Part shown: piece after piece, positions 7,514-39,561 of the stretch
Position numbering within the stretch: the first letter of the stretch is position 1
How the letters are laid out: each line of letters opens with the position of its first letter
Source of the DNA: Escherichia coli
GTDB lineage: Bacteria; Pseudomonadota; Gammaproteobacteria; Enterobacterales; Enterobacteriaceae
Direction: 5' to 3' (one strand)
Length of the DNA: 64,000 nt
Assembly (NCBI RefSeq): GCF_024223415.1
Contig: NZ_CP100500.1
Translations under genes and position numbers: made by a program
Notes under the pieces: model-generated
What the model was told of the DNA's origin: nothing
Database searches by the model: none
What the model saw: only the letters and a program-made list of their open reading frames with translations

Positions 7514-7547
7514 CAGCCCGACGAACTGTTTCGCCGGGCTGATTTTT
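7514..7547. terminator. hairpin terminator between convergent perM and focB
   Basis: cagcccg...cgggctg stem followed by T5 on the + strand. Confidence 0.55.
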
Positions 7548-8395
7548 CAGGATTCCTGACGTAAATAAATAGCCCGATAACATATACTCACCAGCACTGC
7601 ACCGCCGATAATATTACCCAGCATCACCGGGAGCAGATTGGCGGTAATAAAATGGCTTACCGTCAGTGCCGGAAAATTGTCTGCGCTACTGTGCGCCAGT
7701 TGCCAGAAGGAGGTAGGGGCGAAATGGCGAATGGCAATGGCGAACGGAATCACAAACAAATTGGCGATACAGTGCTCAAAGCCACTGGCGACAAACAGGG
7801 TGATGGGCAAAATCATGGCGACGATTTTGTCGCATAACGAACGCCCGCAATAACTCATCCACAGCGCCAGGCAAACCATCAGATTGCACATAATGCCGAG
7901 GCTGACAGATTCAGTAAATGTATGATGCATTTTGCCCTCGGCGCAGTGTAAAACCGCGACTCCCCACATCGCGTTTTCACTCATCACCAGCCCGGAAAAC
8001 CAGATTAACAAACTGAAACAGGCAATACCTGCCAGATTACCGCAGGCCACCAGAAGTGCGTTAATCAGCCAAGTTCGCCAACTAATAAGGCCCCGACTTT
8101 TTGCCATCACCGTCATTACCGACGAGGTGAACAGGCTGGTGCCGCAAACCGCCAGCAAAATAAAGCCGAGTGTAAAGCAAAGGCCGCCCACCAGATGGGT
8201 TAATGCCTGTGAAGACGGGGCATCGGCGATAACGGAAAGGTAAAAAGTAAATCCGATCGCCATAAACACGCCAGCGGACATCGCCATTAAAAAGACCGAC
8301 ACTTTACTGCGGGCAATTTTATGGGCGGCAATCCGTTCAGCGATTGCCGCTTTTCTGGCGCTCAACTGCAAGTCGAAAGAGAGTTTGTTTCTCAT
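7547..8395 (-). CDS. focB: formate channel (FNT family)
   Basis: 282-aa membrane ORF immediately downstream of hyfR in the same orientation. Confidence 0.85.
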   Translation of the reverse strand: MRNKLSFDLQLSARKAAIAERIAAHKIARSKVSVFLMAMSAGVFMAIGFTFYLSVIADAPSSQALTHLVGGLCFTLGFILLAVCGTSLFTSSVMTVMAKSRGLISWRTWLINALLVACGNLAGIACFSLLIWFSGLVMSENAMWGVAVLHCAEGKMHHTFTESVSLGIMCNLMVCLALWMSYCGRSLCDKIVAMILPITLFVASGFEHCIANLFVIPFAIAIRHFAPTSFWQLAHSSADNFPALTVSHFITANLLPVMLGNIIGGAVLVSICYRAIYLRQES

Positions 8396-8416
8396 GCATA
8401 CTCCTGCAAAAACAGA

Positions 8417-10429
8417 TTACAACACCTCGCGAACCGAGATCCCCAGCCGCTGCATTCGTGACAGCAGCGTGGTGCGCTTCATCCCTAATCGCGTCGCTGC
8501 GCCACGGGGCCCGGCAACAATGCCATTGGTTTCTCGCAATACCTGAACAATGCGCTGACGTTCTTCTTCGTCATTCTCTGGCGTCGTCGGGTGCAGTAAC
8601 TGCGCCATTGAACTGCGAAGCGCTGAATCTTCATTTAGCGTCGGCAGTAAACGGCTTTGTCGGACATTAAGATGTAAATTCAGACTGTTACCGCGAGTCA
8701 GTAGTACCGCTCGCTCAATCACGTTTTCCAGCTCGCGCACGTTGCCCGGCCAGTCCCACGACATCAACTGGCGTAGCGCCTCGGTCGGGATGGCGTCAAT
8801 TGCGCGATTCATATGGCGCGCCATTTTTTGCGTGAAATGCTTTGCTAAAAGAGGGATATCTTCCGGACGGTCGCGCAGTGGCGGCAGTTCCAGTGGGAAG
8901 ACATTCAGGCGATAAAAGAGATCGCTGCGAAACTGGCGATCTTCAACCATTTGCCACAAATCACGGTTGGTGGCGGCAATGACTCTGACATTTACCGGGA
9001 TCGTTCTACTCCCGCCGAGACGCTCAATTTCCCGTTCCTGCAATACGCGCAGCAGTTTAGGCTGAAGTTCTAACGGCAGATCGCCAATTTCATCGAGAAA
9101 CAACGTGCCGCCATCGGCAATTTCAAAACGACCACGATGGGTATTAATCGCACCAGTAAATGCCCCTTTGTCATGACCGAATAACTCACTTTCCAGAAGA
9201 CTGGCGGGGATGGCAGCGCAGTTGATTTTGACCAGCGGCTTGTCGCGTCGTGGGCTAAGTTGATGGATCGCTCTGGCGATCACCTCTTTGCCGGTTCCGG
9301 TTTCACCACAAATCAACACCGTACTGTCGCTCTTCGCCACAATATCTACCTGCTGGAGCAAATCTTCCATTGCCTGGCTTTGATAGATAATGTCACCGAC
9401 GCCCAGATTCGAAAGGAGCTGCTCGCTAAGCTGGTGGTTTTCTTGCTGCAAGCTTTCCTGCAAATCGGTCATGCTGCGCCAGGCATCGGCATTGCCAACG
9501 GCAATAGCGATGCGATCGGCAATATGTTGTAGTAGCTGGCAGTTTTCCTCACTAAAGAGAGTGGAAGATGTATGCGCCAGCAACAATGCACCCGGTGTAT
9601 GGTTGCCAAAGGTGAGCGGTATAAGGAGCGCAGATTCGCAGCCGTTAGATGCAAGTAAGTGTAATAACGGGTCGCGTTGCCAGAGAAACAGATCGTCTGC
9701 ACGGTGCGTCAAGGTCGGTTGTCGGGTTTGTAGCGTTTGTGTCAGCAATACACTTTCGCCAGGCATACTGCGTGGCAGACATGCACAATCTGAGGCGGAA
9801 AAAACGCTGCACCACAGGCTGAACTTCTCGTTCTTTCGATGATCGCCCAGTACCATACAGACTGAAGCCAGACCGAAAAAATGATGGATCTCACGAGCGA
9901 CGTCAGCGATCAGATCGTCGAGATCAAGATGTGACAACACTGCATTAGTGATATCCACCAGTACCCGATGATGATCGCGATCTTTCTCCAGCAAACGCAG
10001 CGCCACCTGCTGTTCTTCATCATTGAGCCATGATTGCAGAACCGGGGTGATTATCCGCGCCAGCCAGTTAAACAGTGTGCAATCCTGGGGAGTAAAACGG
10101 CTGCCGTGAGTGCGAATAAAGCGTAGCTCCGCCATTCCACTACTGCCGAGAAGGACGGCGTGACGCGAATAATCGACCATCTCGCCCTGATACTCTGTTG
10201 TTGCCGTCACATCGCTGCCATCATCATGGTAGCGGTAATAGAAGTTGCTTTTGAGAACATGCAGTTCAATAAGTTGTACCGGGCTGAACGGCGGCGGCAG
10301 CGGGATGAAGGCGCGTAATAAAGACGCCTTGCCGTGTTTCTGCGCTAACCGCTCCGCGAGCATTCCGTTTACCGCTTCAATTGTTATTCCTTGTGGCGGG
10401 GCAAACATCGCCTCGTCTGACATAGCCAT
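8417..10429 (-). CDS. hyfR: sigma54-dependent transcriptional activator of the hyf operon
   Basis: 670-aa product with GAF-like N-terminal region, AAA+ sigma54 activator core ([14 protein letters not shown]) and C-terminal HTH. Confidence 0.9.
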
Positions 10430-10458
10430 CAACAGTCCTTATTAATGAGAAATCCTTC

Positions 10459-10872
10459 TCACGCAATTTTTCTGGCCATCAGATAGATGGCCGGTTCCTG
10501 CACAATTTCATCCAACAGATGAATGAATTGAATGCTACGCGCCTGCCACGCCGACGTCGCGTCATCTGCCAGTGGCGCGAATGCCCGGGTCAACAGGGCG
10601 GTGTGGCTGGCGTCAATAACAATCTCACCAAAGGTCATCACCCCCAGCATCTTACGTCGGGCTTGCTTCTCTTCGACCTGTGCAAGCCAATCTTCGTATT
10701 CCGTCTGTGGGCAGCGGAAGGCGACATTCAGACAATCAATCACGCCAACGTGATGACCGATAGCCAACGAGTAATACATTACCTGGGAGCTGTGTTCCGG
10801 CATCTCGTCGCTACTGGCGATAAATTTTTTTCGCAGCGTCCAGAAAACAATTTCCCCGCACTCTTCAGTCAT
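10459..10872 (-). CDS. hyfJ: hydrogenase-4 component J (HycH-like maturation factor)
   Basis: ORF track 10459..10935; likely start at [10 protein letters not shown] giving 137 aa; overlaps hyfI stop by 8 nt. Confidence 0.8.
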
Positions 10873-11623
10873 GTAACCCCCGGAGTACGCGAAAGAGTTG
10901 CTGAACGATACTATTGAGACGTGGATCATCGGCATCGCGCAACCAGGTGTTAACCCGATTTCCTGTAGGATCGTCGCTTAAATGGCGCAGGAGCCGATCG
11001 CAAATTTCTCGCCCCTGACGATAGCCCGCCAGCCGCCGCGCTTCTCGCTCAATGGCGATACGCTGTGATGGCGGGATCTGCGGCCACAACGGTTGCATAG
11101 TCACCCCGGTGGGATCGCGATAATCCACCGCGTGAATCTTCTGTTGCAGCAAACCGAGCGCCACGGCGAAACCGTGAATGGTGGCGGCCGGTGTTGGCGG
11201 GCAGCCGGGGATCCAAACATCAATGGGGACAATGGTGTCGCTGCCGCCCCAGACGCTGTAGAGATCGTGGAAAATACCGCCGCCGACACCGCACGCGCCG
11301 TAGGAAACACAGATTTTATGATCGGGGGCAGACTCATACGCCCGAAGTGCAGGCATACGCATCGCCCGGGTGACTGCGCCAGTAAATAACAAAATATCGG
11401 CGTGACGCGGTGATGAAACAACCTTAATGCCAAAACGTTCTGCGTCGAATACGGGTGTGATGGCGGCAAAAATTTCGATTTCACAGGCGTTGCAGCCGCC
11501 GCAATCGACGCGATAAACGTAGGCTGAGCGACGGATATCCTGTAGCAAATGCCGCTTCATCTTTTGCGTTTGCTCGTCCAGCGTGATGGGCTGGCTGACA
11601 TGTTGTGTAAGCACTGGACTCAT
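10865..11623 (-). CDS. hyfI: hydrogenase-4 small subunit (NuoB-like)
   Basis: 252-aa ORF with CGGC and GCPP cysteine motifs of the Fe-S small subunit. Confidence 0.9.
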
Positions 11624-12165
11624 AGCTGCTCCTTAGCCACCAGCGGTACATCTGTATCGTCGTTGATCAGCGTCGCGCGTTGTTTGCACTCCGGGCAGAC
11701 GCTCGCTTGCGCCCGCAACATTTCGCGGTTTTGTGGCGCATTTTGTTGCTGTGCCAACAATTCAGCAGCCAGTGCGACGGTTTTTTGCGGGGCAAACGGG
11801 CGTTCGCAACGGCTGCAACGTTGTAGATGGAACGTCGCGCGGGTATAGAGATCGGCTTTATTGGTGACGGTCAGTTCAAAGTTATTGGTAAGCTGAATGG
11901 CTCTGGTCGGGCACACTTCTTCACAACGTCCGCAGTAAATACAACGCCCCAGATAGAGCTGCCAGGTGCGCGAATTTTGCTGGTCGTCGGTCTGGATAGT
12001 CAGCGCATTTGCCGGACAAGCACAGGCGCAGGCACCACAGGCAATACATTGGCTGGGCATCAGGTCCGGTTTCCCGCGAAAGCCTGGGCTGACCTCCAGT
12101 GGCGCGAAGGGATATTTCACCGTCGCGGTTCCGGCGCGCATAATAGTTTTCAGTAACTTCAGCAT
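11620..12165 (-). CDS. hyfH: hydrogenase-4 ferredoxin-type subunit (2x[4Fe-4S])
   Basis: 181-aa ORF with two CxxCxxCxxxCP motifs. Confidence 0.9.
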
Positions 12166-12174
12166 CTTCTGTCC

Positions 12175-13890
12175 TTACTTCAGCGGCGAACGGTTACGAT
12201 CAATGCCGTAGCGTTCGATCTCTTTATACGGCACGGTTTTTGACTGGCGCTTGCGCACATCAACCAGCGTCACACGGTCGGTACAGGAGTAGCAGGGATC
12301 AAGGCTACCGATAATCAGCGGTGCGTCAGAAACGGTATTGCCGCGTAGCATGTAACGCAGCACCGGCCAGTTGGCGTAGGTGGCGGCACGACAGCGCCAG
12401 CGGAACAATTTTTGATTATCACCGAGCATGCTCCAGTGCACGTCTTCACCGCGTGGCGCTTCAACAAAGCCGAGTGCGAATGCGTGAGGTTTATAGCTAA
12501 AGCCTTCGGTCAGCAGCGGGGTATCCGGCATGTTGTCGAGGGCAAATTCCAGCATTGCCAGCGAATCAAACGTCTCTTTGACACGGACCATCACGCGGGA
12601 GAAGACATCGCCGCCGGTAAAGGTAAACAGTGTTTTTGGAATATTGCCGTAGTCGGCGTAGGGGTGATCAAAGCGCAAATCACGGGCAAAACCACTGCCG
12701 CGGATCAGCGGTCCTACGGGGCTATAATCACGGGCGATTTGTCGGTCGAGAATGCCAATGCCCTGAGTGCGTTGTTCCATATTCGGCGTGGCAAGCAGCA
12801 TTTCTACCAGCTCCGACACGTCGGCGCGCATCTCGCGCACCAGTTTCAGCGTTTGCAGACGTTGCTCTTTGAGAATATCGCGGCGAACACCACCAATCAG
12901 ATTCAGACCGTAGGTTTTACGCGACCCGGTCAGCAATTCCGCCATTGTCATCGACTTTTCCCGCACGCGGAAAAATTGCATAAAGCCGGTATCAAATCCA
13001 ACAAAATGGCAGGAGAGGCCAAGGTTGAGCAAATGACTGTGTAGCCGTTCGACTTCCAGCAGAATCGAGCGAATGGTATGCGCTCGTTGCGGCACCTCAA
13101 TCCCCAGTGCATTTTCAACCGAGTTGGTATAGGCCACACTGTGGGCAAAACCGCAAATCCCACACACGCGGTCCGATAAGAAGGTCACTTCGTTGTAGCC
13201 CATCCGCGTTTCTGCCAGTTTCTCCATGCCGCGATGGACATAAAACAGGCGGTAATCAGCATCGACAATTTGCTCGCCATCCACAAACAAGCGGAAGTGA
13301 CCCGGTTCATCGGAGGTGATATGCAGCGGGCCGACAGGGATCACCCGCGCATCGCTGTTGCCCTCATTGATAAACGGATACGTTTCGGAATCAGTCGTCG
13401 GTTCAGGGCGCAGTCGATAATCCATCGCATCTTTGCGCAGCGGATGCATATCTTCCGGCCAGTCATCGGGCAACACCAGGCGACGCTGATCCGGCAGGCC
13501 AACCGGAATCAGCCCGTACATATCGCGAATTTCTCGCTCGCCCCAGACCGCGGCAGGGACGCGCGGTGTGACTGACGGAAACTCCCGACTGTCGGCATCG
13601 ACCAGTGCCTTCACCACGATCCAGCATTTTTCGGCCCCTTCCATAGAAAGGGCATAATAAACCGCGTAATGACCGTTAAGTGTCCGCTCGTCGTTGCCAA
13701 ACAGGACCGGAAGCCAGCCATCATGTTGATAATAAAGATACTGTACAACGTCAGGCAGCAGATTGATTTTCACCGTAATGGTGACCTGTTCAGGCGTTTG
13801 TCGCTCTTCATCCAGCACCGCGCCGGGGAACTGCGTTTTCAGGGCGGCGAGAATCGCTTCGCCACGATTTGACGATGAATTAACGTTCAC
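12175..13890 (-). CDS. hyfG: hydrogenase-4 large catalytic subunit ([NiFe], NuoD/HycE-like)
   Basis: ORF track 12175..13935; probable GTG start ([10 protein letters not shown]) preceded by GGAG; start uncertain by a few codons; C-terminal DPCYSCTDR nickel-binding motif. Confidence 0.85.
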
Positions 13891-15460
13891 TGTGTTTCTC
13901 CGAAACAGATGCGGTGCCTGAAGGCAAAAAATCATGCCAGGTGCTACGTTGTGCAGGCAGGTCGTGCGTCCCTGAGAGGACTATAGTGGAAGCGCCCGCC
14001 AGGATCCTGATGACAGGTTGTGGAATATGCGTTCCCATCGCCAGCATCATGACCAGCAGAATCACCATTGGCGAGGTGGTCAACCAGCCGAGATCACCCC
14101 GGTTAACGGCCTGCGGCGGTTTCGCCATTAACACCCGCGCAGCCATCCGTACCAGGCCCGCCAGCACCAGCGTTAACAGCAATAACAGCATGACGATAAT
14201 CAGCAGGTGATTACGCGCCAGTCCGGCGGTAACGGTCATAAATTCGCTAAGAAAAATGTTGAAGGGCGGCATCCCGGCCAGCGCCAGCGCACCGCCGCCA
14301 AACAGCACGGCGGTAAATGGCATGATTTTGAGCATCCCGCAGACGACGTTGAGATCGCGCGTGCCGTACTTGAGCAGTACATTGCCGGAACCGCAGAACA
14401 GCAGCGTTTTTGCCAGACTGTGGTTTAAGGTGTGCAGCAGCGCGGCAAAAATTCCCAGCGGCCCGCCAATGCCTAGCGCCACCGCGACCAGTCCCATGTT
14501 CTCCACGCTGGAGTACGCCAGCAGACGCTTAATGTCCCGCTGTACCAGAATGAAAAATGCCGCCACGGCAACCGACAACATGCCGAAGATGAGCAACAAC
14601 CGGTTGGGGAAATCGCTGCCGATGGCCTGGCAAATAATGATGTAATAGCGAATCAGCACCAACAGCGCGCAGTTCAGCAATACGGCGGAGAGTAGGGCGC
14701 TGACCGGACTCGGCGCTTCACTGTGAGCATCCGGCAGCCAGGCGTGCATGGGAAATAGCCCGGTTTTGGTACCAAAGCCAATTAGCACAAACACAAAGGC
14801 CAACAGCATTAATGTTGGGTCAAGCAAGGACGATTGCTTAAGAACCTCGCTCCAGAATATCGCCATTTCTGCCTGCGGCATAACGCTGGCGGCGTTGGCG
14901 TATACCAGCACGGTACCGAACAGACCAAAAGCGACACCAACAGTACAAATAATGATGTACTTCCATGCTGCTTCCAGCGATGAACGCTGACCGTAAATGC
15001 CTACCAGAAACGCCGAGCTTAAGGTGGTGGCTTCGATCGCCGCCCACATCACAATCAGGTTATTGCTGGTAACAACCAGCAGCATGGTGAACAAAAACAG
15101 ATGGAAGAAACCGTAGTAATCGCACAGCGTAACGGGTGAAAGCTCGCCGTGAGCCACTTCATGACGCATGTAGCCAATCGAGTAAACACCGGTGAGAAAG
15201 CCAATCACACCAAGAATGGCGAGGAACAAACCGCCCAGACCATCAATATGAAGCCACAGTCCCGCAGCGAATATTTCTCCTGCATCAGCGGCAGTTTGGA
15301 CCACCCAGAGTGCCAGAATCAGCAGCAGTGTGATCCCTAAGCAATGTAATACGGTCACCGTGCGAGTCGCAGAGTGCCCCCGTTTCCGGCAGGCAAAACA
15401 GAGCAGCGAAAAAAGCAGCGGCGTGAGCAGGAGTAAAGCGAACATCACAGAATAACTCAT
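13880..15460 (-). CDS. hyfF: hydrogenase-4 membrane subunit (NuoL/M/N-like antiporter subunit)
   Basis: 526-aa polytopic membrane ORF. Confidence 0.9.
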
Positions 15461-15464
15461 CTCA

Positions 15465-16115
15465 TTATCCCTTCAGCGCGGTCAAGTTGTTCACGTCCAG
15501 CGTGCCGTGGGTACGCCATATTTTTCTTGCCAGTAACACCATCACAATGACGGCGAAGATGGCGTCGGTAGCGATACCTATTTCCACCAGTTCCGGTGCT
15601 CGCCAGGCAAGAAGCGCCAGCACCAGATGGGAGCCGTTTTCCATCAGGCAGTAACCAAAAATTTGCCGCAGGATATTGCGCTGGCTGACAATGCACAGCA
15701 GGCCAAGCAGAAAATGACCTAACGCCACCGCCAGCGCCGGTTTCAGCCCGGTAGCCATCGGTAGCTTCACGGGCTGAACGACAAATGCGCAAAGCAGGAC
15801 AATTAACGCCGCGAGCAGTGCCATCATTGCCGGACCGAATAACGCTTTTTCCGGGATGTTCTGGGGAATATTTCGTGCAGCGTAAGTCATGATTAACGGT
15901 ACCAGCAGCACTTTGGTGATAAAGGCGCTGGCGGACCAGATCAGCAGTTGCTCTGCGGCGAACAGGCACGAGAGAGTGGCGAAAATAGACACCAGCACCA
16001 GCGACTGGCAGACGTAAAATCCGCATGACAGGCGATAGCTTTTGACGCTAATCACAAACAGCGATGTCAGCATCATCAGTCCCGCCAGATTATTTACGAT
16101 CGTAGAACCGGTCAT
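15465..16115 (-). CDS. hyfE: hydrogenase-4 membrane subunit E
   Basis: 216-aa hydrophobic ORF in operon context. Confidence 0.85.
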
Positions 16116-16126
16116 TCATCATCTCC

Positions 16127-17566
16127 TTACTGCAACCAGGTCGCGGCGATTACGCTGGAAATCAGCGACATCACAATCAGTACAATCAGCACCAGGCGCA
16201 TTGACCCTGGCAGCGGTGCGGCATCGGCGACGGCCTCGCTCGGTTTGCCCGGCACGACGCGACCAAACCAGCGAATAAACCAGGCGAAACTGGCGACCGA
16301 TTCAATCATCAGCAGAATCATGGCGGGCAGCAGGATCCAGTACTCCACTGACAACGCAAAACCGGCGGCAAACAGCGGGAATTTACTGAAGAAGCCGTTG
16401 AACGGCGGCACACCGGTAATCGCCAGCGCTGCCACGCAGAAACCCACGCCTGGCAACGGCAGGGTGTGCAATACGCCACGCAGACGCGGCAACAAGCGCG
16501 TGCCGCAGCTGTAACTCAGCGCACCTGCTACAAGGAAAAACAGGCTTTTAGCGAACGCGTGGTTGACGATGTAGGCGATGCTACCCTCCAGCGCCAGCCG
16601 CGAGCCGAAGATGGAGAGCGACAAGCCGAAGAACATCCAGCCAAGTTGAGTGATGGTCGACCAGGCCAGCAACCGCTTCATATCCTGCTGTGGCAAATAC
16701 ATCAGAAATCCATAAAGAATGGTGACCAGGGCCATGACCATGCCAACGCCGCCAATCACATGCGGGATATTGCCACCGTCGATAATGGCGCGGGCAAAAA
16801 TGTAAACGCCCACTTTCACCATCGATGCGGCGTGGAGATAGGCGCTGATCGGTGTTGGCGCTTCCATTGCGTCCGGTAGCCACGCTTGCATCGGTAGTTG
16901 GGCCGATTTCCCCCACGCGGCAAACAGGATGCCGCCATAAACCAGATAACGTGCGTCGCCGTGTAACTCGCTCATCGCGCTAAGCGCAAACGTTCCGGTC
17001 TGCAAAAACAGCGTGGCGGCGGCAAGATACAATCCCAGCGAACCGATATGGGTGATAAGTAACGCTTTTAGTGCTGAACGCTGCGCTTTATCGCTCTGGT
17101 AATAACTGATCAACGCCCAGGAGCAGCCGCCCGTAATTTCAAAAAACAACAACTGACCGAGCAGCGTCGAGGAGAGTACCAGTCCCGCCATCGCGCCGAT
17201 AAAAACCAGCAAAAATGCGTAATAACGATTCGTACCGTTATGCGGGTGTTCGCGATTTTTATCCGTCAGATAACCCGTGGAGTAGATCGTGACCAGCAAA
17301 CCGAGAAACACCACCACAAACAGAATCAGCGTACTCACGCGATCAATGAGCAGGCCAAACAACGCCACATCCCCCACGTTGACCAACGTCAACGTGACGG
17401 CAACTTTATCGGCCTGATAAAACGCGGAGATCAGTGACAACATGCACAGCGTGGTCAGCGCGGCGAACAAAACCCCCCATTCGGCGGCCCGACGTTGTGG
17501 CGAAAACGAAACGACCAGTGCGCCGATAAAAGGCATCATTAACGTCGTCAGAGCAAGATTTTCCAT
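16127..17566 (-). CDS. hyfD: hydrogenase-4 membrane subunit (NuoL/M/N-like)
   Basis: 479-aa polytopic membrane ORF. Confidence 0.9.
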   Translation of the reverse strand: MENLALTTLMMPFIGALVVSFSPQRRAAEWGVLFAALTTLCMLSLISAFYQADKVAVTLTLVNVGDVALFGLLIDRVSTLILFVVVFLGLLVTIYSTGYLTDKNREHPHNGTNRYYAFLLVFIGAMAGLVLSSTLLGQLLFFEITGGCSWALISYYQSDKAQRSALKALLITHIGSLGLYLAAATLFLQTGTFALSAMSELHGDARYLVYGGILFAAWGKSAQLPMQAWLPDAMEAPTPISAYLHAASMVKVGVYIFARAIIDGGNIPHVIGGVGMVMALVTILYGFLMYLPQQDMKRLLAWSTITQLGWMFFGLSLSIFGSRLALEGSIAYIVNHAFAKSLFFLVAGALSYSCGTRLLPRLRGVLHTLPLPGVGFCVAALAITGVPPFNGFFSKFPLFAAGFALSVEYWILLPAMILLMIESVASFAWFIRWFGRVVPGKPSEAVADAAPLPGSMRLVLIVLIVMSLISSVIAATWLQ

Positions 17567-17582
17567 ATTCCGTCAGTGCTCC

Positions 17583-18530
17583 TTACAGACCGGTTAACCA
17601 GAAGACCCATGCAAGCGCAGCAAGGCTGAAGCCAAGCCAGGTCACATGGTGAATGAGTAAAAAACGCCCGCGTGCCAGCGTGTTTTCTGCGATAGAGGCC
17701 AGAACAAAAATCAGCAAAACCTTGAGCAGCGTAACGACAAGTGAAGTCAGCAGGCAGGCGAGAGAAAGTTCTTGCGCGCGCCCAAAGGGCAGAAACAGGG
17801 CCACAAACAGTGCTGCCATCACGACCTGTTTCAGCCCCAGCCCCCATTTCGCTAGCGCCAGCCCGGCACCGGAATATTCTGTCAGCGGGCCTTCCTGTAA
17901 TTCCTGTTCTGCTTCAGCAACATCAAAGGGAATTTTTCCCATCTCAATGAAGCAGGCAAAACCACAGGCCAGTAACGCCAGTACGGTGGTTAGCGGCGAG
18001 TTCCAGCCCGTTGCCAGCGTATTGCTGATCATCTCGATATGCGTGGAACCTGCTATCAGCGCCAATACCAGCAGTGAGAGAATGAGCATGGGTTCGACCA
18101 GAATGCCGAGCGTCAACTCGCGACTGGCACCGACTCCCGCAAACGGGCTTCCGGTATCCAGCCCTGAAAGAGCAAAGAAAAAACGAAACAGGGCAAGAAG
18201 ATAGATAAGGGTGATCAGATCGCCGCCGCCCGCAAAAGGGGAAACGGTAATAAATAGTGGTAGGGCCATCGCCAGCACCAGCATGCTGCTGATTAATACC
18301 CACGGCATCAGGCGGAACATCAGACCTGAAGATGTCGGCGCAACTTCCTGCCGTTTAAACAGTTTGTGGATATCGCGATAATCCTGCCAGATCCCCGGTC
18401 CGCGGCGGGAGTGCATTCGCGCGCGTATCTGCCGGGAAATACCCGTAAAAAGTGGGGTTAGCATCAGCAGAATCACGGCCTGTGCTAACTCAAAAATGAC
18501 CAGATATCCGTCGCAAAGAGTTTGTCTCAT
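17583..18530 (-). CDS. hyfC: hydrogenase-4 membrane subunit (NuoH-like)
   Basis: ORF track 17583..18551; likely start at MRQTLCDGYL giving 315 aa. Confidence 0.85.
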   Translation of the reverse strand: MRQTLCDGYLVIFELAQAVILLMLTPLFTGISRQIRARMHSRRGPGIWQDYRDIHKLFKRQEVAPTSSGLMFRLMPWVLISSMLVLAMALPLFITVSPFAGGGDLITLIYLLALFRFFFALSGLDTGSPFAGVGASRELTLGILVEPMLILSLLVLALIAGSTHIEMISNTLATGWNSPLTTVLALLACGFACFIEMGKIPFDVAEAEQELQEGPLTEYSGAGLALAKWGLGLKQVVMAALFVALFLPFGRAQELSLACLLTSLVVTLLKVLLIFVLASIAENTLARGRFLLIHHVTWLGFSLAALAWVFWLTGL

Positions 18531-18540
18531 GGTGATTTCC

Positions 18541-20559
18541 TTAGACGGCAATAGCGATTAGCAGCACAACCAGTGCGGCGACCACATACAGGCAATAGAG
18601 ACGAAAGTCGCCGCTTTGCAGATGCTGTATTTCTTTGGCCAGCCGTTGGGTGGCGCTCACGATGGGGCGGATCACCCGCTCATCCCAGAAGGGTTCTGTG
18701 CTCTGAGCCCTGGCGGTGACGTGCGCAAGACCTTTATTTAGCCTCAGCGTAGGGTCGAGCTGTTGTCGTAGACGAAATAGCGCAGAGAAGACCACACGCA
18801 GCGGCTGCATCACGCCATTGCCTGACGGGGCCATCGCATTTTCCCAGCCGTAGCCGCATGCCCAGGCATCTCCTGTGCGACGAAACGCTGCGCGGCGCGA
18901 ACGACACCACAGCCAGTAAAGGCCAGGCAGCAAAGGCATCGCCAGTAGTAACAGCAACAGTAATGAGGGGGTGACCTGTGTATGAAACGTGCCGGGTACA
19001 AGTGCTATTCCGCTGGCGACAGTGACGGGAGGGGTATTGGTAAACGCATGGGCAATATGCATTATCTTCGGTGCCAGCCAACTGGCACTAAGCGCAATTA
19101 ATACGCAGAGTGCCGCGAGCAGTAGCATGGCGACGATCATCGTATTTGGCACTTCCTGTGCCTCTTCAGCGTGTGTACTGCGCGGCGCACCACAGAAAGT
19201 AATACCGTACATTTTGACGAAGCACATTACTGCCAGCCCACCAGTGACTGCCAGCATCACCATAGCAATAGGACCCGCAAGTTGTAGCGCTACGGCTTCC
19301 ACACGACTTAGTGAGAACAGCGACTGCCAGGTGTACCATTCGCTGATAAAACCATTCAGCGGAGGAAGGGCTGATATCGCGAGGCAACCAATCAGGCATG
19401 CTGCGGCTGTCCACGGCATCCGTTTTGCCAGTGCCCCCATTTTTTCCATGTCGTGGGTATGCAAACGCGAAATAATCGCACCCGCGCCGAGAAATAGCAG
19501 CCCTTTGAACAGCGCATGGTTGAGCAGATGAAACAGTGCGCCGAGCAGTCCAACCACGGTGAGCAGCGGGTCGTGCAGTGACAGACCGACCATCGCCACA
19601 CCGACTGCCAGCAAAATAATGCCGACGTTTTCGACGGTACTCCAGGCCAGCAGCCGTTTGATATCCTGTTCCGCCAGCGCATATAGCACGCCCAGGAGCG
19701 CGGAGATTGCGCCGATCGCCATCACCAGAATGCCCCACCACAGAGGCAAACCCGTTTGCGCCAGCAGATCCATCGCTACTTTCAGGATGCCGAAAATACC
19801 GATTTTGACCATTACGCCAGACATCAACGCCGAAGCGTGCGATGGTGCGGCAGGGTGAGCGCGCGGCAACCAGCTGTGCAACGGCATCATCCCGGCTTTC
19901 GCGCCAAAACCGAAAAAGGCCAGCAGGAACACCGCCGACGCCAGCCCCGGAGAAAGTGAAAGCGTGCGGAAACTGGCAAAATCTAGGCTGCCGCTTTCGC
20001 GCCCCATCAGCAAGAAGGCGATCATAATCAGCACCGATCCGGCGTGGGCGATAAAAAAGTAGAGCATGCCAGCGTTGATCGACGTTTTATCCTGCCTGGC
20101 AATGACCAGAAACCAGGAAGACAGCGACATCATTTCAAACAGCACGATGAACCAAAAAGCGTTGTCCATCACCAGCAGGGCAACCATCGATGCGATGAAA
20201 ATATTCATAAAGAAGCCCATCGCCGCCGCGCCTTTGCCCTCGTATTCGCGCATATAAGTCAATGAATAGAGCGAACAAACCACCACCAGCAAGGAGATAA
20301 CCAGCACCATAAATGCCGAGAGGCTATCCATTCGCAGGGTTAAATCGGCAAAGTCAAAAGGGGTGGCAAAACGGGCGACTAAAGTTACGCCTGCATGTAA
20401 TTGCGTAATTCCGCTGATGATGCCAATCACGCCGCCCACCAGCGATGTGATGCCGGAAAGCTTAATAGCCAGTCTGTCCAGACCGAGTAAAAACAGCGAA
20501 GCCAGACTGGCAAACAGATAGAGGATCAGCGACCAGGTTAATAATTGCAGGGCATCCAT
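18541..20559 (-). CDS. hyfB: hydrogenase-4 membrane subunit (NuoL-like)
   Basis: 672-aa polytopic membrane ORF. Confidence 0.9.
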   Translation of the reverse strand: MDALQLLTWSLILYLFASLASLFLLGLDRLAIKLSGITSLVGGVIGIISGITQLHAGVTLVARFATPFDFADLTLRMDSLSAFMVLVISLLVVVCSLYSLTYMREYEGKGAAAMGFFMNIFIASMVALLVMDNAFWFIVLFEMMSLSSWFLVIARQDKTSINAGMLYFFIAHAGSVLIMIAFLLMGRESGSLDFASFRTLSLSPGLASAVFLLAFFGFGAKAGMMPLHSWLPRAHPAAPSHASALMSGVMVKIGIFGILKVAMDLLAQTGLPLWWGILVMAIGAISALLGVLYALAEQDIKRLLAWSTVENVGIILLAVGVAMVGLSLHDPLLTVVGLLGALFHLLNHALFKGLLFLGAGAIISRLHTHDMEKMGALAKRMPWTAAACLIGCLAISALPPLNGFISEWYTWQSLFSLSRVEAVALQLAGPIAMVMLAVTGGLAVMCFVKMYGITFCGAPRSTHAEEAQEVPNTMIVAMLLLAALCVLIALSASWLAPKIMHIAHAFTNTPPVTVASGIALVPGTFHTQVTPSLLLLLLLAMPLLPGLYWLWCRSRRAAFRRTGDAWACGYGWENAMAPSGNGVMQPLRVVFSALFRLRQQLDPTLRLNKGLAHVTARAQSTEPFWDERVIRPIVSATQRLAKEIQHLQSGDFRLYCLYVVAALVVLLIAIAV

Positions 20560-21176
20560 TAGCGTTGCTCCTGAGTGAGGGAAAGGGGATCCTCCCCGCC
20601 ATTGGCAAACCAGCTTGCGGCAAGGCGCTGTTTTTCTTTCATCTGACGTTGCAGGCTATCGTCGGTGATCAGCCGTAACGCCTGATTCGGGCAAGCGCGA
20701 ACGCAGGCCGGACCTTCTGGCAAGAAATCACACAGGTCGCATTTCACCGCGACGGTCTGGACACCCGGTTCCCAGCGCAGCAAAGCATGTTGTGTTGGCG
20801 CGTTTTCTTCGCCGTCTTTGAGTGAGCCTTCAGCCTGAAAAACATATTGCGCAGGGGCATTCACCGGACGGCTTCCTGAAGCGCTGATTGCGCCAAATGG
20901 GCAGACCACGGCGCAAAGCTTGCAGCCAATACAGAGGCTTTCGTTGAGTTGGATCGCATCATCCCTCTGGGAGATGGCATTGACCGGGCAGACCTGCAGG
21001 CAAGGGGCTTCCTCACAGTGATGACACACGACAGGGGCAGTGAGTGTTGACGTCTTCGCCAGGGCCAGGCGCGGGTGTTGCTGTAAACCTTGCGTTTTAT
21101 GCACGTCCGAACAGGCAGCGAGACAGGTATTACATCCTGTACACCACAGTGGTTCGGCCACCACAAAGCGGTTCAT
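20559..21176 (-). CDS. hyfA: hydrogenase-4 ferredoxin-type subunit (4x Fe-S cluster motifs)
   Basis: ORF track 20559..21215; likely start at MNRFVVAEPL giving 205 aa; multiple CxxCxxCxxxC motifs. Confidence 0.85.
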   Translation of the reverse strand: MNRFVVAEPLWCTGCNTCLAACSDVHKTQGLQQHPRLALAKTSTLTAPVVCHHCEEAPCLQVCPVNAISQRDDAIQLNESLCIGCKLCAVVCPFGAISASGSRPVNAPAQYVFQAEGSLKDGEENAPTQHALLRWEPGVQTVAVKCDLCDFLPEGPACVRACPNQALRLITDDSLQRQMKEKQRLAASWFANGGEDPLSLTQEQR

Positions 21177-21300
21177 GTCGGCTCCTTGAAAATGATATGA
21201 AACATTGCATTTCATATTGCATAAAGGATGCTAGTCTGATTAATTTAATATATTCAATAAGTTATGAGTTAACTGGATTCTGAGCGGTACAAAAATGATG
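21177..21300 (-). promoter_or_regulatory. hyf operon upstream control region (promoter not pinpointed)
   Basis: AT-rich leader with tandem ATGCAAT repeats 30-50 bp upstream of hyfA; the operon is reported to be sigma54/HyfR dependent but I could not find a convincing GG-N10-GC element. Confidence 0.3.
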
Positions 21301-21428
21301 GTCATTAACGTTCAGCAAAAAATGGATTCGACACCCGTGTCGCAGGGGAAAGTGAGAATGTGATCTTGGTCACGAGAAGTGAGGTGTGCTGACCACAAGC
21401 GCAGCCAGCACGGAATGGAGCAAAGTAA

Positions 21429-21899
21429 TCAGGCGTGTTCTTTCAGCCAGTTCAGCACAACGTCGTGGTGATTGCTGGTTTTGAAATCGTCAAAGACATG
21501 TTCGATTTTGCCATCAGCGTCAATCAGGAAGCTGATGCGATGAATACCATCGTAGGTTTTGCCCATGAAGGACTTTTCCCCCCAGACGCCGAATTGTTCG
21601 CACACCTGGTGGTCCTCATCAGACAGGAGCGTAAAGTTAAGCAGCTCTTTTTCCGCAAAACGGGAGAGTTTTTCGGGTTTATCGGTGCTGATACCCAGCA
21701 CATCAACGCCCGCTTTTTTCAACTCATCCATGTTATCGCGTAAGCCGCAGGCCTGTACGGTACAGCCGGGGGTCATGGCTTTCGGGTAGAAATAAACCAG
21801 AACACGCTGTCCCTGGAAGTCGGTCAAATTAACTTGTTCTCCGTCTTGATCCGGCAAGCTAAATTTCGGTGCGGTATCACCGGCTTTCAGTGGATTCAT
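21429..21899 (-). CDS. bcp: thiol peroxidase (peroxiredoxin)
   Basis: 156-aa ORF with peroxidatic PGCT motif; start overlaps gcvR stop by 1 nt (TAATG). Confidence 0.9.
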   Translation of the reverse strand: MNPLKAGDTAPKFSLPDQDGEQVNLTDFQGQRVLVYFYPKAMTPGCTVQACGLRDNMDELKKAGVDVLGISTDKPEKLSRFAEKELLNFTLLSDEDHQVCEQFGVWGEKSFMGKTYDGIHRISFLIDADGKIEHVFDDFKTSNHHDVVLNWLKEHA

Positions 21900-25626: not shown

Positions 25627-25854
25627 ATGGAAACTACTGTATTTTTAAGTAATCGCAGTCAGGCCGTCAGATTACCGAAAGCGGTCGCTCTGCCAGAGGA
25701 TGTTAAGAAAGTAGAAATTATTGCGATTGGTCGTACAAGAATCATCACTCCCGCCGGTGAGTCCTGGGACAGTTGGTTTGATGGCGAAAATGTGAGTGCG
25801 GATTTTATGGATATCCGTGATCAACCCGCAATGCAGGAAAGGGAATCATTCTGA
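25627..25854 (+). CDS. vapB: VapB-type antitoxin (AbrB/SpoVT fold)
   Basis: 75-aa product METTVFLSNRSQAVRLPKAVALPEDVKK... closely resembles VapB/MvpA antitoxins as I recall them; preceded by a G-rich RBS; stop overlaps the toxin start (TGATG). Confidence 0.8.
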   Translation: METTVFLSNRSQAVRLPKAVALPEDVKKVEIIAIGRTRIITPAGESWDSWFDGENVSADFMDIRDQPAMQERESF

Positions 25855-26252
25855 TGCTGAAATTCATGCTGGATACCAATATCTGTATTTTCACTATTAA
25901 GAATAAACCAGTACATGTCAGAGAGCGGTTTAACCTGAATTCTGGCCGGATGTGTATAAGTTCTGTAACATTGATGGAGCTTATCTATGGGGCAGAAAAA
26001 AGTCAGATGCCAGAACGCAATTTGGCGGTGATTGAAGGTTTCGTATCTCGTTTGGAAGTGCTTGATTATGATAGTGCTGCTGCGACGCATACTGGGCAAA
26101 TCAGGGCCGAGCTTGCCCGGCAGGGAAGGCCTGTTGGACCTTTTGACCAGATGATAGCGGGACATGCTCGCAGTCGCGGTTTGATTGTGGTTACCAACAA
26201 TACCCGAGAGTTTGAGCGAGTGGCGGGAATCAGACTAGAAGATTGGAGCTAA
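25854..26252 (+). CDS. vapC: VapC-type PIN-domain toxin (tRNA endonuclease family)
   Basis: 132-aa product MLKFMLDTNICIFTIK... with PIN-domain acidic residues; 1-nt overlap with vapB. Confidence 0.8.
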   Translation: MLKFMLDTNICIFTIKNKPVHVRERFNLNSGRMCISSVTLMELIYGAEKSQMPERNLAVIEGFVSRLEVLDYDSAAATHTGQIRAELARQGRPVGPFDQMIAGHARSRGLIVVTNNTREFERVAGIRLEDWS

Positions 26253-37581: not shown

Positions 37582-39561
37582 ATGAATCGTTTTATTATGG
37601 CCAACAGTCAGCAATGTCTGGGTTGTCATGCTTGTGAAATCGCCTGTGTCATGGCTCACAATGATGAGCAACATGTCCTGAGCCAACACCATTTTCATCC
37701 CCGAATTACGGTTATCAAACATCAGCAGCAACGTAGTGCAGTGACCTGTCACCATTGTGAAGATGCGCCCTGCGCCCGTAGCTGCCCTAATGGCGCAATC
37801 AGCCACGTTGATGACAGCATTCAGGTCAATCAGCAAAAGTGTATTGGCTGTAAATCCTGCGTGGTGGCCTGTCCGTTTGGTACGATGCAAATCGTCCTGA
37901 CACCCGTCGCAGCGGGCAAGGTTAAAGCCACGGCGCATAAATGCGACCTTTGTGCAGGGCGCGAAAACGGTCCTGCCTGTGTCGAGAATTGCCCGGCGGA
38001 CGCGCTGCAGCTGGTCACTGACGCCGCACTCTCAGGCATGGCGAAATCCCGCCGCTTGCGTACCGCACGTCAGGAACATCAACCGTGGCATGCCAGTACC
38101 GCTGCACAAGAAATGCCGGTAATGAGTAAAGTCGAACAAATGCAGGCAACGCCCGCGCGTGGCGAGCCGGATAAACTGGCGATTGAAGCGCGCAAAACCG
38201 GTTTTGATGAAATTTATCTGCCATTCCGTGCCGATCAGGCACAACGGGAAGCCTCGCGCTGCCTTAAATGCGGCGAGCACAGCGTTTGTGAATGGACCTG
38301 CCCGCTGCATAACCATATACCGCAGTGGATTGAACTGGTGAAAGCCGGAAACATCGACGCCGCCGTCGAGCTTTCTCACCTGACCAACACCCTGCCGGAA
38401 ATTACCGGACGCGTTTGTCCGCAAGACCGTTTGTGTGAAGGTGCCTGTACTATTCGCGATGAGCACGGTGCGGTAACTATCGGCAACATTGAACGCTACA
38501 TTTCAGATCAGGCGTTGGCGAAAGGTTGGCGTCCTGACTTAAGCCATGTCACCAAAGTGGACAAGCGGGTGGCGATTATCGGTGCAGGTCCGGCAGGGCT
38601 GGCCTGTGCGGATGTTCTGATCCGCAATGGCGTGGCGGTGACGGTGTACGATCGCCATCCAGAAATCGGTGGCTTGCTCACTTTCGGCATTCCTTCTTTC
38701 AAACTGGATAAATCCCTGCTGGCACGTCGTCGGGAAATCTTCAGCGCGATGGGGATTCACTTCGAACTCAATTGTGAAGTGGGTAAAGATGTCTCTTTGG
38801 ATTCGCTTTTGGAACAATACGACGCGGTCTTCGTTGGCGTAGGCACTTACCGTTCCATGAAAGCGGGTTTACCCAATGAAGATGCGCCGGGCGTTTATGA
38901 CGCGCTGCCGTTCCTCATCGCCAACACTAAACAGGTGATGGGGCTCGAAGAGCTACCGGAAGAGCCGTTTATCAATACCGCCGGACTCAACGTCGTGGTA
39001 CTGGGCGGCGGCGACACCGCGATGGACTGTGTGTGTACTGCGCTGCGCCACGGCGCGAGTAACGTCACCTGCGCTTATCGTCGTGATGAAGCTAACATGC
39101 CAGGCTCGAAGAAAGAGGTGAAGAACGCCCGCGAAGAGGGGGCCAACTTCGAATTTAACGTCCAGCCGGTGGCGCTTGAGCTGAATGAACAAGGTCACGT
39201 TTGCGGGATTCGTTTCCTGCGTACGCGTCTTGGCGAGCCGGATGCCCAGGGGCGTCGGCGTCCAGTACCGGTGGAAGGCAGTGAATTTGTCATGCCAGCC
39301 GACGCGGTGATTATGGCGTTTGGCTTCAATCCGCACGGGATGCCGTGGCTGGAGTCGCACGGTGTAACGGTAGACAAATGGGGCCGCATCATCGCGGATG
39401 TGGAAAGCCAGTACCGTTACCAGACCACCAATCCGAAAATCTTCGCCGGTGGCGACGCCGTGCGTGGTGCGGATCTGGTGGTTACCGCAATGGCAGAAGG
39501 ACGTCATGCGGCACAGGGGATTATTGACTGGCTGGGGGTAAAATCAGTCAAATCTCACTGA
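37582..39561 (+). CDS. aegA: Fe-S cluster-containing oxidoreductase (GltD-like, anaerobically expressed)
   Basis: 659-aa ORF with N-terminal ferredoxin-like Cys motifs and C-terminal FAD/NAD(P)-binding GltD-like region. Confidence 0.85.
   Translation: MNRFIMANSQQCLGCHACEIACVMAHNDEQHVLSQHHFHPRITVIKHQQQRSAVTCHHCEDAPCARSCPNGAISHVDDSIQVNQQKCIGCKSCVVACPFGTMQIVLTPVAAGKVKATAHKCDLCAGRENGPACVENCPADALQLVTDAALSGMAKSRRLRTARQEHQPWHASTAAQEMPVMSKVEQMQATPARGEPDKLAIEARKTGFDEIYLPFRADQAQREASRCLKCGEHSVCEWTCPLHNHIPQWIELVKAGNIDAAVELSHLTNTLPEITGRVCPQDRLCEGACTIRDEHGAVTIGNIERYISDQALAKGWRPDLSHVTKVDKRVAIIGAGPAGLACADVLIRNGVAVTVYDRHPEIGGLLTFGIPSFKLDKSLLARRREIFSAMGIHFELNCEVGKDVSLDSLLEQYDAVFVGVGTYRSMKAGLPNEDAPGVYDALPFLIANTKQVMGLEELPEEPFINTAGLNVVVLGGGDTAMDCVCTALRHGASNVTCAYRRDEANMPGSKKEVKNAREEGANFEFNVQPVALELNEQGHVCGIRFLRTRLGEPDAQGRRRPVPVEGSEFVMPADAVIMAFGFNPHGMPWLESHGVTVDKWGRIIADVESQYRYQTTNPKIFAGGDAVRGADLVVTAMAEGRHAAQGIIDWLGVKSVKSH

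Follow-up and report, generated by a model that had tools for sequence, protein, structure and literature searches.

A rare G>A change in the -24 box of the known sigma-54 promoter upstream of an intact hydrogenase-4 (hyf) operon of Escherichia coli

The hydrogenase-4 (hyf) operon and its sigma-54 promoter, PhyfA, are already known, textbook features of Escherichia coli. We analysed a 64,000-nucleotide stretch of an E. coli genome (contig NZ_CP100500.1 of assembly GCF_024223415.1; this whole stretch is called the window), in which the operon hyfABCDEFGHIJR-focB occupies 7547..21176 of the minus strand and is flanked by bcp and yfgO. PhyfA is mutated rather than missing in the window. A rare and recently derived G>A change has hit this orthologue of a known promoter, and it probably weakens the binding of sigma-54 and lowers the expression of the operon.

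The GG at -24 and the GC at -12 are the principal contacts of sigma-54, and transcription requires an ATP-dependent activator bound upstream. In K-12, the site OS23 (ATGGCATCCTTTATGCA) was detected by chromatin immunoprecipitation sequencing (ChIP-seq) with an occupancy score of 16 and is flagged as experimentally confirmed in EcoCyc (Bonocora et al. 2015, PMC4591121). Its predicted start lies 31 nt before hyfA, 19 bp downstream of the motif centre (Bonocora 2015, PMC4591121). When genomic SELEX (systematic evolution of ligands by exponential enrichment) was performed with RpoN holoenzyme alone, the bcp-hyfA spacer gave a 92% peak, and its peak was the highest (100%) with NtrC added (Shimada et al. 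2021, PMC8743547). The orthologous core in the window is the following.

21234..21218, minus strand: PhyfA sigma-54 core, CTAGCATCCTTTATGCA, orthologous to OS23

This core is identical to OS23 at 15 of 17 positions and lies at an equal distance from hyfA. The aligned core of the closely related strain NCTC10444 is CTGGCATCCTTTATGCA, to which the window core is identical at 16 of 17 positions; the G>A at 21232 is the single difference between the two strains in a 290-nt stretch. Position 21232 is the first G of the -24 GG (position -25), so that GG becomes AG and the box TGGCAT becomes TAGCAT (CTAGCAT). The -12 element is intact, with ATGCA at 21222..21218 and the N5 spacing in register, and every consensus position but the first G matches. 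A Dcm (CCWGG) hotspot was considered as the cause of the G>A and rejected, as direct reading of the sequence context did not fit it.

The strength of the site was scored with a matrix. A plain search for TGGCACN5TTGCW, allowing 3 mismatches at most, returned 343 matches versus 362 expected; it was uninformative and was therefore replaced by a sigma-54 matrix built from 49 intergenic ChIP sites, with hyfA left out of the training. The NCTC10444, K-12 and window alleles scored 15.4, 14.0 and 9.0 bits, respectively. The window allele thus loses 6.4 bits relative to NCTC10444 and falls to chance level (rank 44 of the 127,968 positions in the window), and either intact allele would rank first across the whole 64 kb. 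None of the 49 ChIP sites has an A at the first G of the -24 GG. Three ChIP sites have no GG, and their occupancies are 2, 3 and 5 versus a median of 11 for GG sites. The spacer contains no canonical sigma-54 site by this matrix, the top same-strand score being 9.0 bits, and no second sigma-54-like site was found on either strand (others scored 3.7 bits or less), barring the same palindromic stretch read on the reverse strand.

A preliminary description of this DNA had reported no convincing sigma-54 -24/-12 element upstream of hyfA. At 9.0 bits there is indeed none that convinces, but the orthologous known site sits at 21234..21218. The element is not visible by eye because the G>A spoils the -24 GG of the known promoter. 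The description had named a clear sigma-54 site that it had overlooked as what would refute it; this holds only by half, since the overlooked site was located by homology and not by strength. Consensus scanning alone overlooks a real orthologous promoter when its GG is broken.

Other sigma-54-like motifs were scored in the window by the same matrix. One lies inside hyfR at 8608..8592 on the minus strand (ATGGCGCAGTTACTGCA, 13.9 bits), 197 nt upstream of focB, and another inside hyfF at 14416..14400 on the minus strand (CTGGCAAAAACGCTGCT, 13.4 bits). K-12 has both motifs unchanged, but searching the text of Bonocora 2015 gave no hyfR or hyfF entry. The top match of the whole window is at 39298..39282 on the minus strand (CTGGCATGACAAATTCA, 13.9 bits).

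The window was placed among the available genomes by its bcp-hyfA region. A 1-kb bcp-hyfA probe matched 5,424 of 5,426 complete genomes, with the top matches 99.9% identical, which places the window in E. coli. It comes from a strain other than K-12, its hyf region being 98.2-98.7% identical to that of MG1655 at the DNA level. NCTC10444 differs from the window by 9 single-nucleotide polymorphisms over 29 kb and by 3 differences in 14.6 kb of hyf, and NCTC9112, KV7 and O78 strain 3 are other near-identical complete genomes. The hyf locus of these four strains is essentially the same as in the window, but their -24 box is an intact CTGGCAT. The RefSeq gene order is gcvR-bcp-hyfABCDEFGHIJR-focB-yfgO in both NCTC10444 and MG1655. 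The K-12 operon has the same genes, order, overlaps, flanks (bcp, yfgO) and start codons as the window, with 0-9 amino-acid substitutions in each protein, and by alignment it shares the promoter position, the -12 box and the candidate upstream elements described below.

To count the A allele in the 5,426 complete genomes, we used a 55-nt query centred on the variant, in which each 28-nt megablast seed must include the variant base. The counts for this and three other promoter changes were as follows.

First G of GG to A (TAGCAT, as in the window): 14 genomes
Second G of GG to A (TGACAT; window position 21231): 88 genomes
-13 G to A: 0 genomes
-12 C to T: 0 genomes

Natural alleles that break the -24 GG were therefore carried by about 102 of roughly 4,300 hyf-bearing genomes. 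The GG upstream of hyfA is kept in 20 of 25 outgroup loci of other genera; the outgroups came from a HyfA search of genome contigs, and they include no Escherichia species, with Citrobacter as the nearest. Across hyf, four other AG carriers differ from the window by 1-2%, and their flanking haplotypes are different, while the close relatives of the window have G; the AG allele has therefore arisen several times. Our comparison indicates that the A allele at 21232 is derived and rare.

All four of these other AG carriers, when inspected, showed further damage to hyf. In WP2-W18-CRE-03, hyfB, C, D, F, I and focB are pseudogenes; in O111:H8 7-55 62A, hyfI is frameshifted; and in O145:H28 RM12761, hyfH is shortened and focB is cut by ISEc20. 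FDAARGOS_943 has three hyf frameshifts, which are possibly assembly errors (narQ is frameshifted too). The damage among the four carriers includes internal stops, a deletion of ~100 bp in hyfH and one of ~205 bp in hyfD. In addition, roughly 1,130 genomes cover less than 80% of the bcp-hyfA or hyf query, and hyf is reported to be lost in the F/G/B2 lineage (PMC6896753). Judged from these sequences, the allele pattern fits an operon that is weakly selected in E. coli and whose promoter is one target among several. The commoner TGACAT allele occurs in at least two flanking backgrounds, in asymmetry with the -12 GC, for which no genome showed a transition.

The region upstream of PhyfA was compared with four Citrobacter loci, to which the spacer is roughly 70% identical. 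The Citrobacter sigma-54 core is ATGGCATCCTTTGTGCA and retains the GG, and the conserved footprint also includes the Shine-Dalgarno sequence. Four candidate upstream elements were found.

21374..21359 (-168..-153), minus strand: CRP-like TGTGA-N6-TCACA palindrome, CGTGACCAAGATCACA, named by consensus resemblance only
21342..21329 (-136..-123), minus strand: inverted repeat CGACAC-GG-GTGTCG, candidate HyfR/FhlA upstream activating sequence
21313..21289 (-107..-83), minus strand: most conserved upstream block, GAACGTTAATGACCATCATTTTTGT, candidate activator-binding site
21264..21252 (-58..-46), minus strand: IHF-like A/T-rich element, TAACTTATTGAAT, between the upstream sites and the promoter

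The CRP-like site is perfect in three Citrobacter loci (TGTGACTAATATCACA), and the palindrome suggests a conserved catabolite control of hyf. The inverted repeat is conserved in Citrobacter as CGACACTAATGCCG, and its word GTGTCGA recurs in the FhlA-controlled hyc-hyp spacer of K-12. A role of this repeat as an activator site is plausible; our scanner flagged the same repeat as a weak terminator-like hairpin downstream of bcp. The third block is nearly invariant between E. coli and the four Citrobacter loci, from which we infer that it may be an activator site. The IHF-like element is partly conserved with Citrobacter, and its resemblance to the IHF consensus is our own, putative reading.

A single sigma-54 promoter ~30 nt before hyfA drives hyf in E. 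coli, and both the operon's own enhancer-binding protein HyfR and FhlA activate it from upstream sites. In the mechanism that we propose, the AG allele would weaken closed-complex formation by the sigma-54 holoenzyme, and with a lower holoenzyme occupancy the HyfR/FhlA-dependent transcription of hyf would be further reduced. Expression of hyf in K-12 is already very low, as reported by the papers that PMC7384014 and PMC7654741 cite on this point. The operon in the window strain is likely more silent than in K-12, and the G>A may be a further step in the erosion of hyf by mutation that is under way across E. coli. What is least certain is how large the effect is.

Several points weigh against this proposal. 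Sigma-54 sites without GG can be weakly bound, as in the three ChIP examples above. The remaining core and the upstream architecture are intact, and the promoter might still respond to over-produced activator. None of the closest complete genomes shares the A at 21232, so it may be a sequencing error. All twelve genes are intact, which is awkward for a simple picture of a decaying operon in the window strain. The transcription start that Skibinski et al. are reported to have mapped in 2002, 30 nt upstream of hyfA, is supported here only indirectly, by the start predicted 31 nt before hyfA.

It is rather unlikely, though worth weighing, that the G>A is simply tolerated and the promoter works about as in K-12, the other 16 positions and the enhancer sites being intact. 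The three bound sites without GG and the intact hyf open reading frames (ORFs) and hyfR speak for this, as does the K-12 site itself, which is among the strongest holoenzyme binders in vitro and may have affinity to spare. However, an A at this position occurs in 0 of 49 sites, the non-GG sites have the lowest occupancy (2-5 versus a median of 11), the loss of 6.4 bits brings the score to background level, and the GG is conserved across genera. We consider it quite improbable that the A is a sequencing or assembly error and the true promoter reads CTGGCAT. In favour of an error, the six closest complete genomes do not have this A, which accounts for one of the only 9 positions at which the window and NCTC10444 differ over 29 kb, but the allele is found in 14 independent complete assemblies, on at least three other haplotype backgrounds, and so arises naturally; moreover, 21232 lies outside a homopolymer, and a chance substitution error on the most critical base of the promoter is unlikely. 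A switch of promoter class is very improbable. Here TAGCAT would serve as a -10-like hexamer of sigma-70 and make hyf independent of sigma-54 and HyfR. The hexamer does have A at position 2 and T at position 6 and lies 18 nt downstream of TTGAAT (21257..21252), and the recurrence of the allele in several lineages could hint at selection. Yet TTGAAT-18-TAGCAT has only 8 of 12 consensus matches and no TG extension before the hexamer, the four other carriers inspected have hyf pseudogenes, which fits loss rather than gain of function, and the commoner GG>GA allele makes no such hexamer, which also fits loss of function. With a threshold of at least 9 of 12 matches and a spacer of 16-18 nt, the scanner called no sigma-70 promoter in 21100..21460, and none in the NCTC10444 counterpart either.

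The preliminary description had instead pointed to tandem ATGCAAT repeats upstream of hyfA, implying that the heptamers themselves may be a regulatory element, such as a repeated protein-binding site that replaces the sigma-54 promoter. The two copies are as follows.

21222..21216, minus strand: ATGCAAT copy 1, containing the -12 TGCA (aTGCAa) of the sigma-54 core
21210..21204, minus strand: ATGCAAT copy 2, spanning the predicted transcription start at 21207 or 21206

The repeats are real. Two exact copies 12 nt apart are well placed, 46-28 nt upstream of the hyfA ATG, and both are present and identical in K-12 and all E. coli examined. They are no replacement for the promoter, since the first copy forms the -12 box of the ChIP-mapped sigma-54 site and the second lies over the predicted start. 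In Citrobacter the sigma-54 core is conserved but copy 2 is not. Among dinucleotide shuffles of the spacer, 19% contain a direct repeat of 7 nt or more within 20 nt, as do 22% of real 252-nt tiles taken from the window, so that the frequency is at chance level. Given this frequency and the lack of conservation of copy 2, the repeats were rejected as a meaningful feature, and a regulatory role of their own is extremely improbable.

The genes downstream of the promoter were defined by mapping the K-12 gene starts onto the window. All 12 ORFs are uninterrupted at the K-12-equivalent starts, and their lengths are those of K-12 except for hyfG. They are listed below.

21176..20559, minus strand: hyfA, 205 aa, 4Fe-4S ferredoxin subunit; Shine-Dalgarno AAGGAG at 21187..21182
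20559..18541, minus strand: hyfB, 672 aa, antiporter-like membrane subunit; NCBIfam 'hydrogenase 4 subunit B', 979 bits (cutoff 667)
18530..17583, minus strand: hyfC, 315 aa, NuoH-like membrane subunit, ATG start; length and start as in RefSeq hyfC of K-12 and NCTC10444
17566..16127, minus strand: hyfD, 479 aa, antiporter-like membrane subunit; NCBIfam 'hydrogenase 4 subunit D', 808 bits (cutoff 430)
16115..15465, minus strand: hyfE, 216 aa, membrane subunit specific to hydrogenase-4; NCBIfam equivalog, 367 bits (cutoff 136)
15460..13880, minus strand: hyfF, 526 aa, antiporter-like membrane subunit; NCBIfam 'hydrogenase 4 subunit F', 1178 bits (cutoff 951)
13890..12175, minus strand: hyfG, 571 aa, [NiFe] large subunit, GTG start
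12165..11620, minus strand: hyfH, 181 aa, ferredoxin-like; NCBIfam 'hydrogenase 4 subunit H' equivalog, 364 bits (cutoff 270)
11623..10865, minus strand: hyfI, 252 aa, small subunit, identical to K-12 HyfI; NuoB-family match
10872..10459, minus strand: hyfJ, 137 aa, HycH-like maturation protein; NCBIfam HycH subfamily, 207 bits (cutoff 145), residues 5-136
10429..8417, minus strand: hyfR, 670 aa, ATG start, sigma-54 enhancer-binding activator; 8 substitutions versus K-12
8395..7547, minus strand: focB, 282 aa, formate channel; Pfam Form_Nir_trans, E 7e-64; 5 substitutions versus K-12

The ORF mapping together with NCBIfam and Pfam confirmed that the ten structural genes, hyfR and focB are complete and intact, as the preliminary description had stated. 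The extra membrane subunits specific to hydrogenase-4, HyfD, HyfE and HyfF, all score above the curated NCBIfam equivalog cutoffs, and HyfR has the Pfam domains GAF, Sigma54_activat (E 5e-75, intact) and AAA lid. The four tight overlaps that it had named are real: A/B overlap by 1 nt, F/G by 11 nt, H/I by 4 nt and I/J by 8 nt. Its choice of start codons also proved right, with GTG for hyfG and, for hyfA, hyfC and hyfJ, ATG starts downstream of those of the longest ORFs; the same applies to hyfR. The longer hyfA ORF from 21215 would start upstream of the predicted transcription start, and the shorter hyfJ start is supported by the HycH subfamily match over residues 5-136. The span it gave, 8417-21300, was titled as including focB, which is present but lies at 7547..8395, outside the start of that span. 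The hyfF stop codon at window position 13881 is TAA in the window and TCA in NCTC10444; the NCBI annotation pipeline (PGAP) labels hyfF of NCTC10444 a pseudogene because the stop codon is lost there, and the window retains it. No gene was found between the end of hyfJ (10459) and the start of hyfR (10429), so that the window has no hyfK there; the literature reports hyfK as missing from E. coli (PMC7384014, PMC7654741).

The gene comparison that matters more than the promoter finding, whose interest is modest, is that of hyfG. This gene has 1,716 nt (571 aa) in the window versus 1,668 nt (555 aa) in K-12, and it is shorter in K-12 because 48 bp have been lost in frame. NCTC10444 has a full-length hyfG like the window.

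12735..12688, minus strand: the 48 bp deleted in K-12, encoding HyfG residues 386-401

The segment is flanked by direct repeats GCCCGTGATT at 12735..12726 and 12687..12678 (compared with 9243..9252 of the K-12 locus), and as read from these sequences its loss bears the signature of a deletion between direct repeats. The deletion junction is present in 2,113 of the 5,426 complete genomes including K-12, while at least 1,980 genomes, O157:H7 and O104:H4 among them, have the undeleted allele. About half of the hyf-bearing E. coli, the laboratory reference K-12 among them, thus carry the deletion.

The 571-aa HyfG aligned end to end and without gaps with HycE of 7z0s (E 6e-293), and without gaps with 36 of 39 homologues from other genera; the 386-401 segment itself is present without gaps in all 39 outgroup loci. 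In an alignment of 25 sequences that includes the window and K-12, 10 of the 16 segment positions are invariant in the other 23. Its GPxxRGSG core can also be recognised in Pyrococcus MbhL and the 49-kDa subunits of complex I. HyfG of the window carries both CxxC motifs (RVCGICG, DPCYSC), a 32-residue C-terminal peptide and the conserved GPxxRxSG segment, and it differs from K-12 HyfG, which is without that segment. The numbering of 7z0s chain E is offset by 12 (His-tag), which was verified via Asp529 and Cys531. HyfG Arg397 is the counterpart of HycE Arg395 and falls in the segment deleted in K-12. HycE Arg395, His284 and Glu437 belong to a putative proton pathway conserved in formate hydrogenlyase (FHL), membrane-bound hydrogenase (MBH), soluble hydrogenases and complex I (Steinhilper et al. 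2022, PMC9474812). An AlphaFold2 model of HyfG from the 25-sequence alignment was discarded, because its mean predicted local distance difference test score (pLDDT) was 56.8 and that of the segment was below 50. These alignments indicate that the window HyfG is the ancestral, structurally complete large subunit.

The inactivity of hydrogenase-4 has been described as a long-standing mystery by Lindenstrauss and Pinske. In 15 K-12 strains, Sargent's group exchanged both the hyf promoter and the C-terminal peptide of HyfG; they obtained no H2 and concluded that the supply of the protease is not the sole limitation (Finney et al. 2020, PMC7654741). The hyfG deletion is not mentioned in the texts of PMC7654741, PMC7384014, bioRxiv 10.1101/563510 and PMC7050243, nor suggested by other hyfG titles; subscription papers were outside this search, and we make no claim of priority. 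Thirty years of work on a 'silent' hydrogenase-4 used a hyfG allele without the conserved 16-residue segment. We tentatively suggest, as a possibility that we rate below an even chance, that hydrogenase-4 of the window is the ancestral, potentially catalytically competent form and that the K-12 hyfG deletion, and not weak transcription or a missing protease, would explain why hydrogenase-4 of K-12 was never activated, not even under strong promoters. If so, lineages like that of the window would be the place to find or rebuild a working E. coli FHL-2, and in the window strain the promoter would have been hit instead of hyfG.

Two kinds of known systems can be set beside the window. The functional FHL-2 clusters of Pectobacterium atrosepticum and Trabulsiella guamensis have the hyfA-J core, five membrane subunits and a HyfR-type activator, as in the window. 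These clusters add the protease gene hyfK and make H2, and that of Pectobacterium also has fdhF (PMC7384014, PMC7654741, bioRxiv 10.1101/563510). In contrast, the window, like all E. coli, is without hyfK and runs from hyfJ to hyfR and then focB. The Pectobacterium loci in our comparison (L025 and L046; neither is P. atrosepticum or Trabulsiella) have a full-length HyfG that aligns without gaps with that of the window. The E. coli hyc operon (hydrogenase-3 / FHL-1, 7Z0S) resembles hyf in having sigma-54 promoters and an FhlA-type activator, but hyf has three extra membrane subunits (HyfD, E and F), an activator of its own and a formate channel. The -24 boxes of the hyc promoters are canonical TGGCAC, unlike that of PhyfA in the window.

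Outside the operon, an Rfam scan of the whole 64-kb window gave no family at the gathering score. A vapBC toxin-antitoxin pair lies at ~25627..26252 between purC and ypfJ, as judged from position-for-position identity with NCTC10444. This insertion is variable, being present in WP2-W18-CRE-03 and O111:H8 and absent from FDAARGOS_943 and O145:H28.

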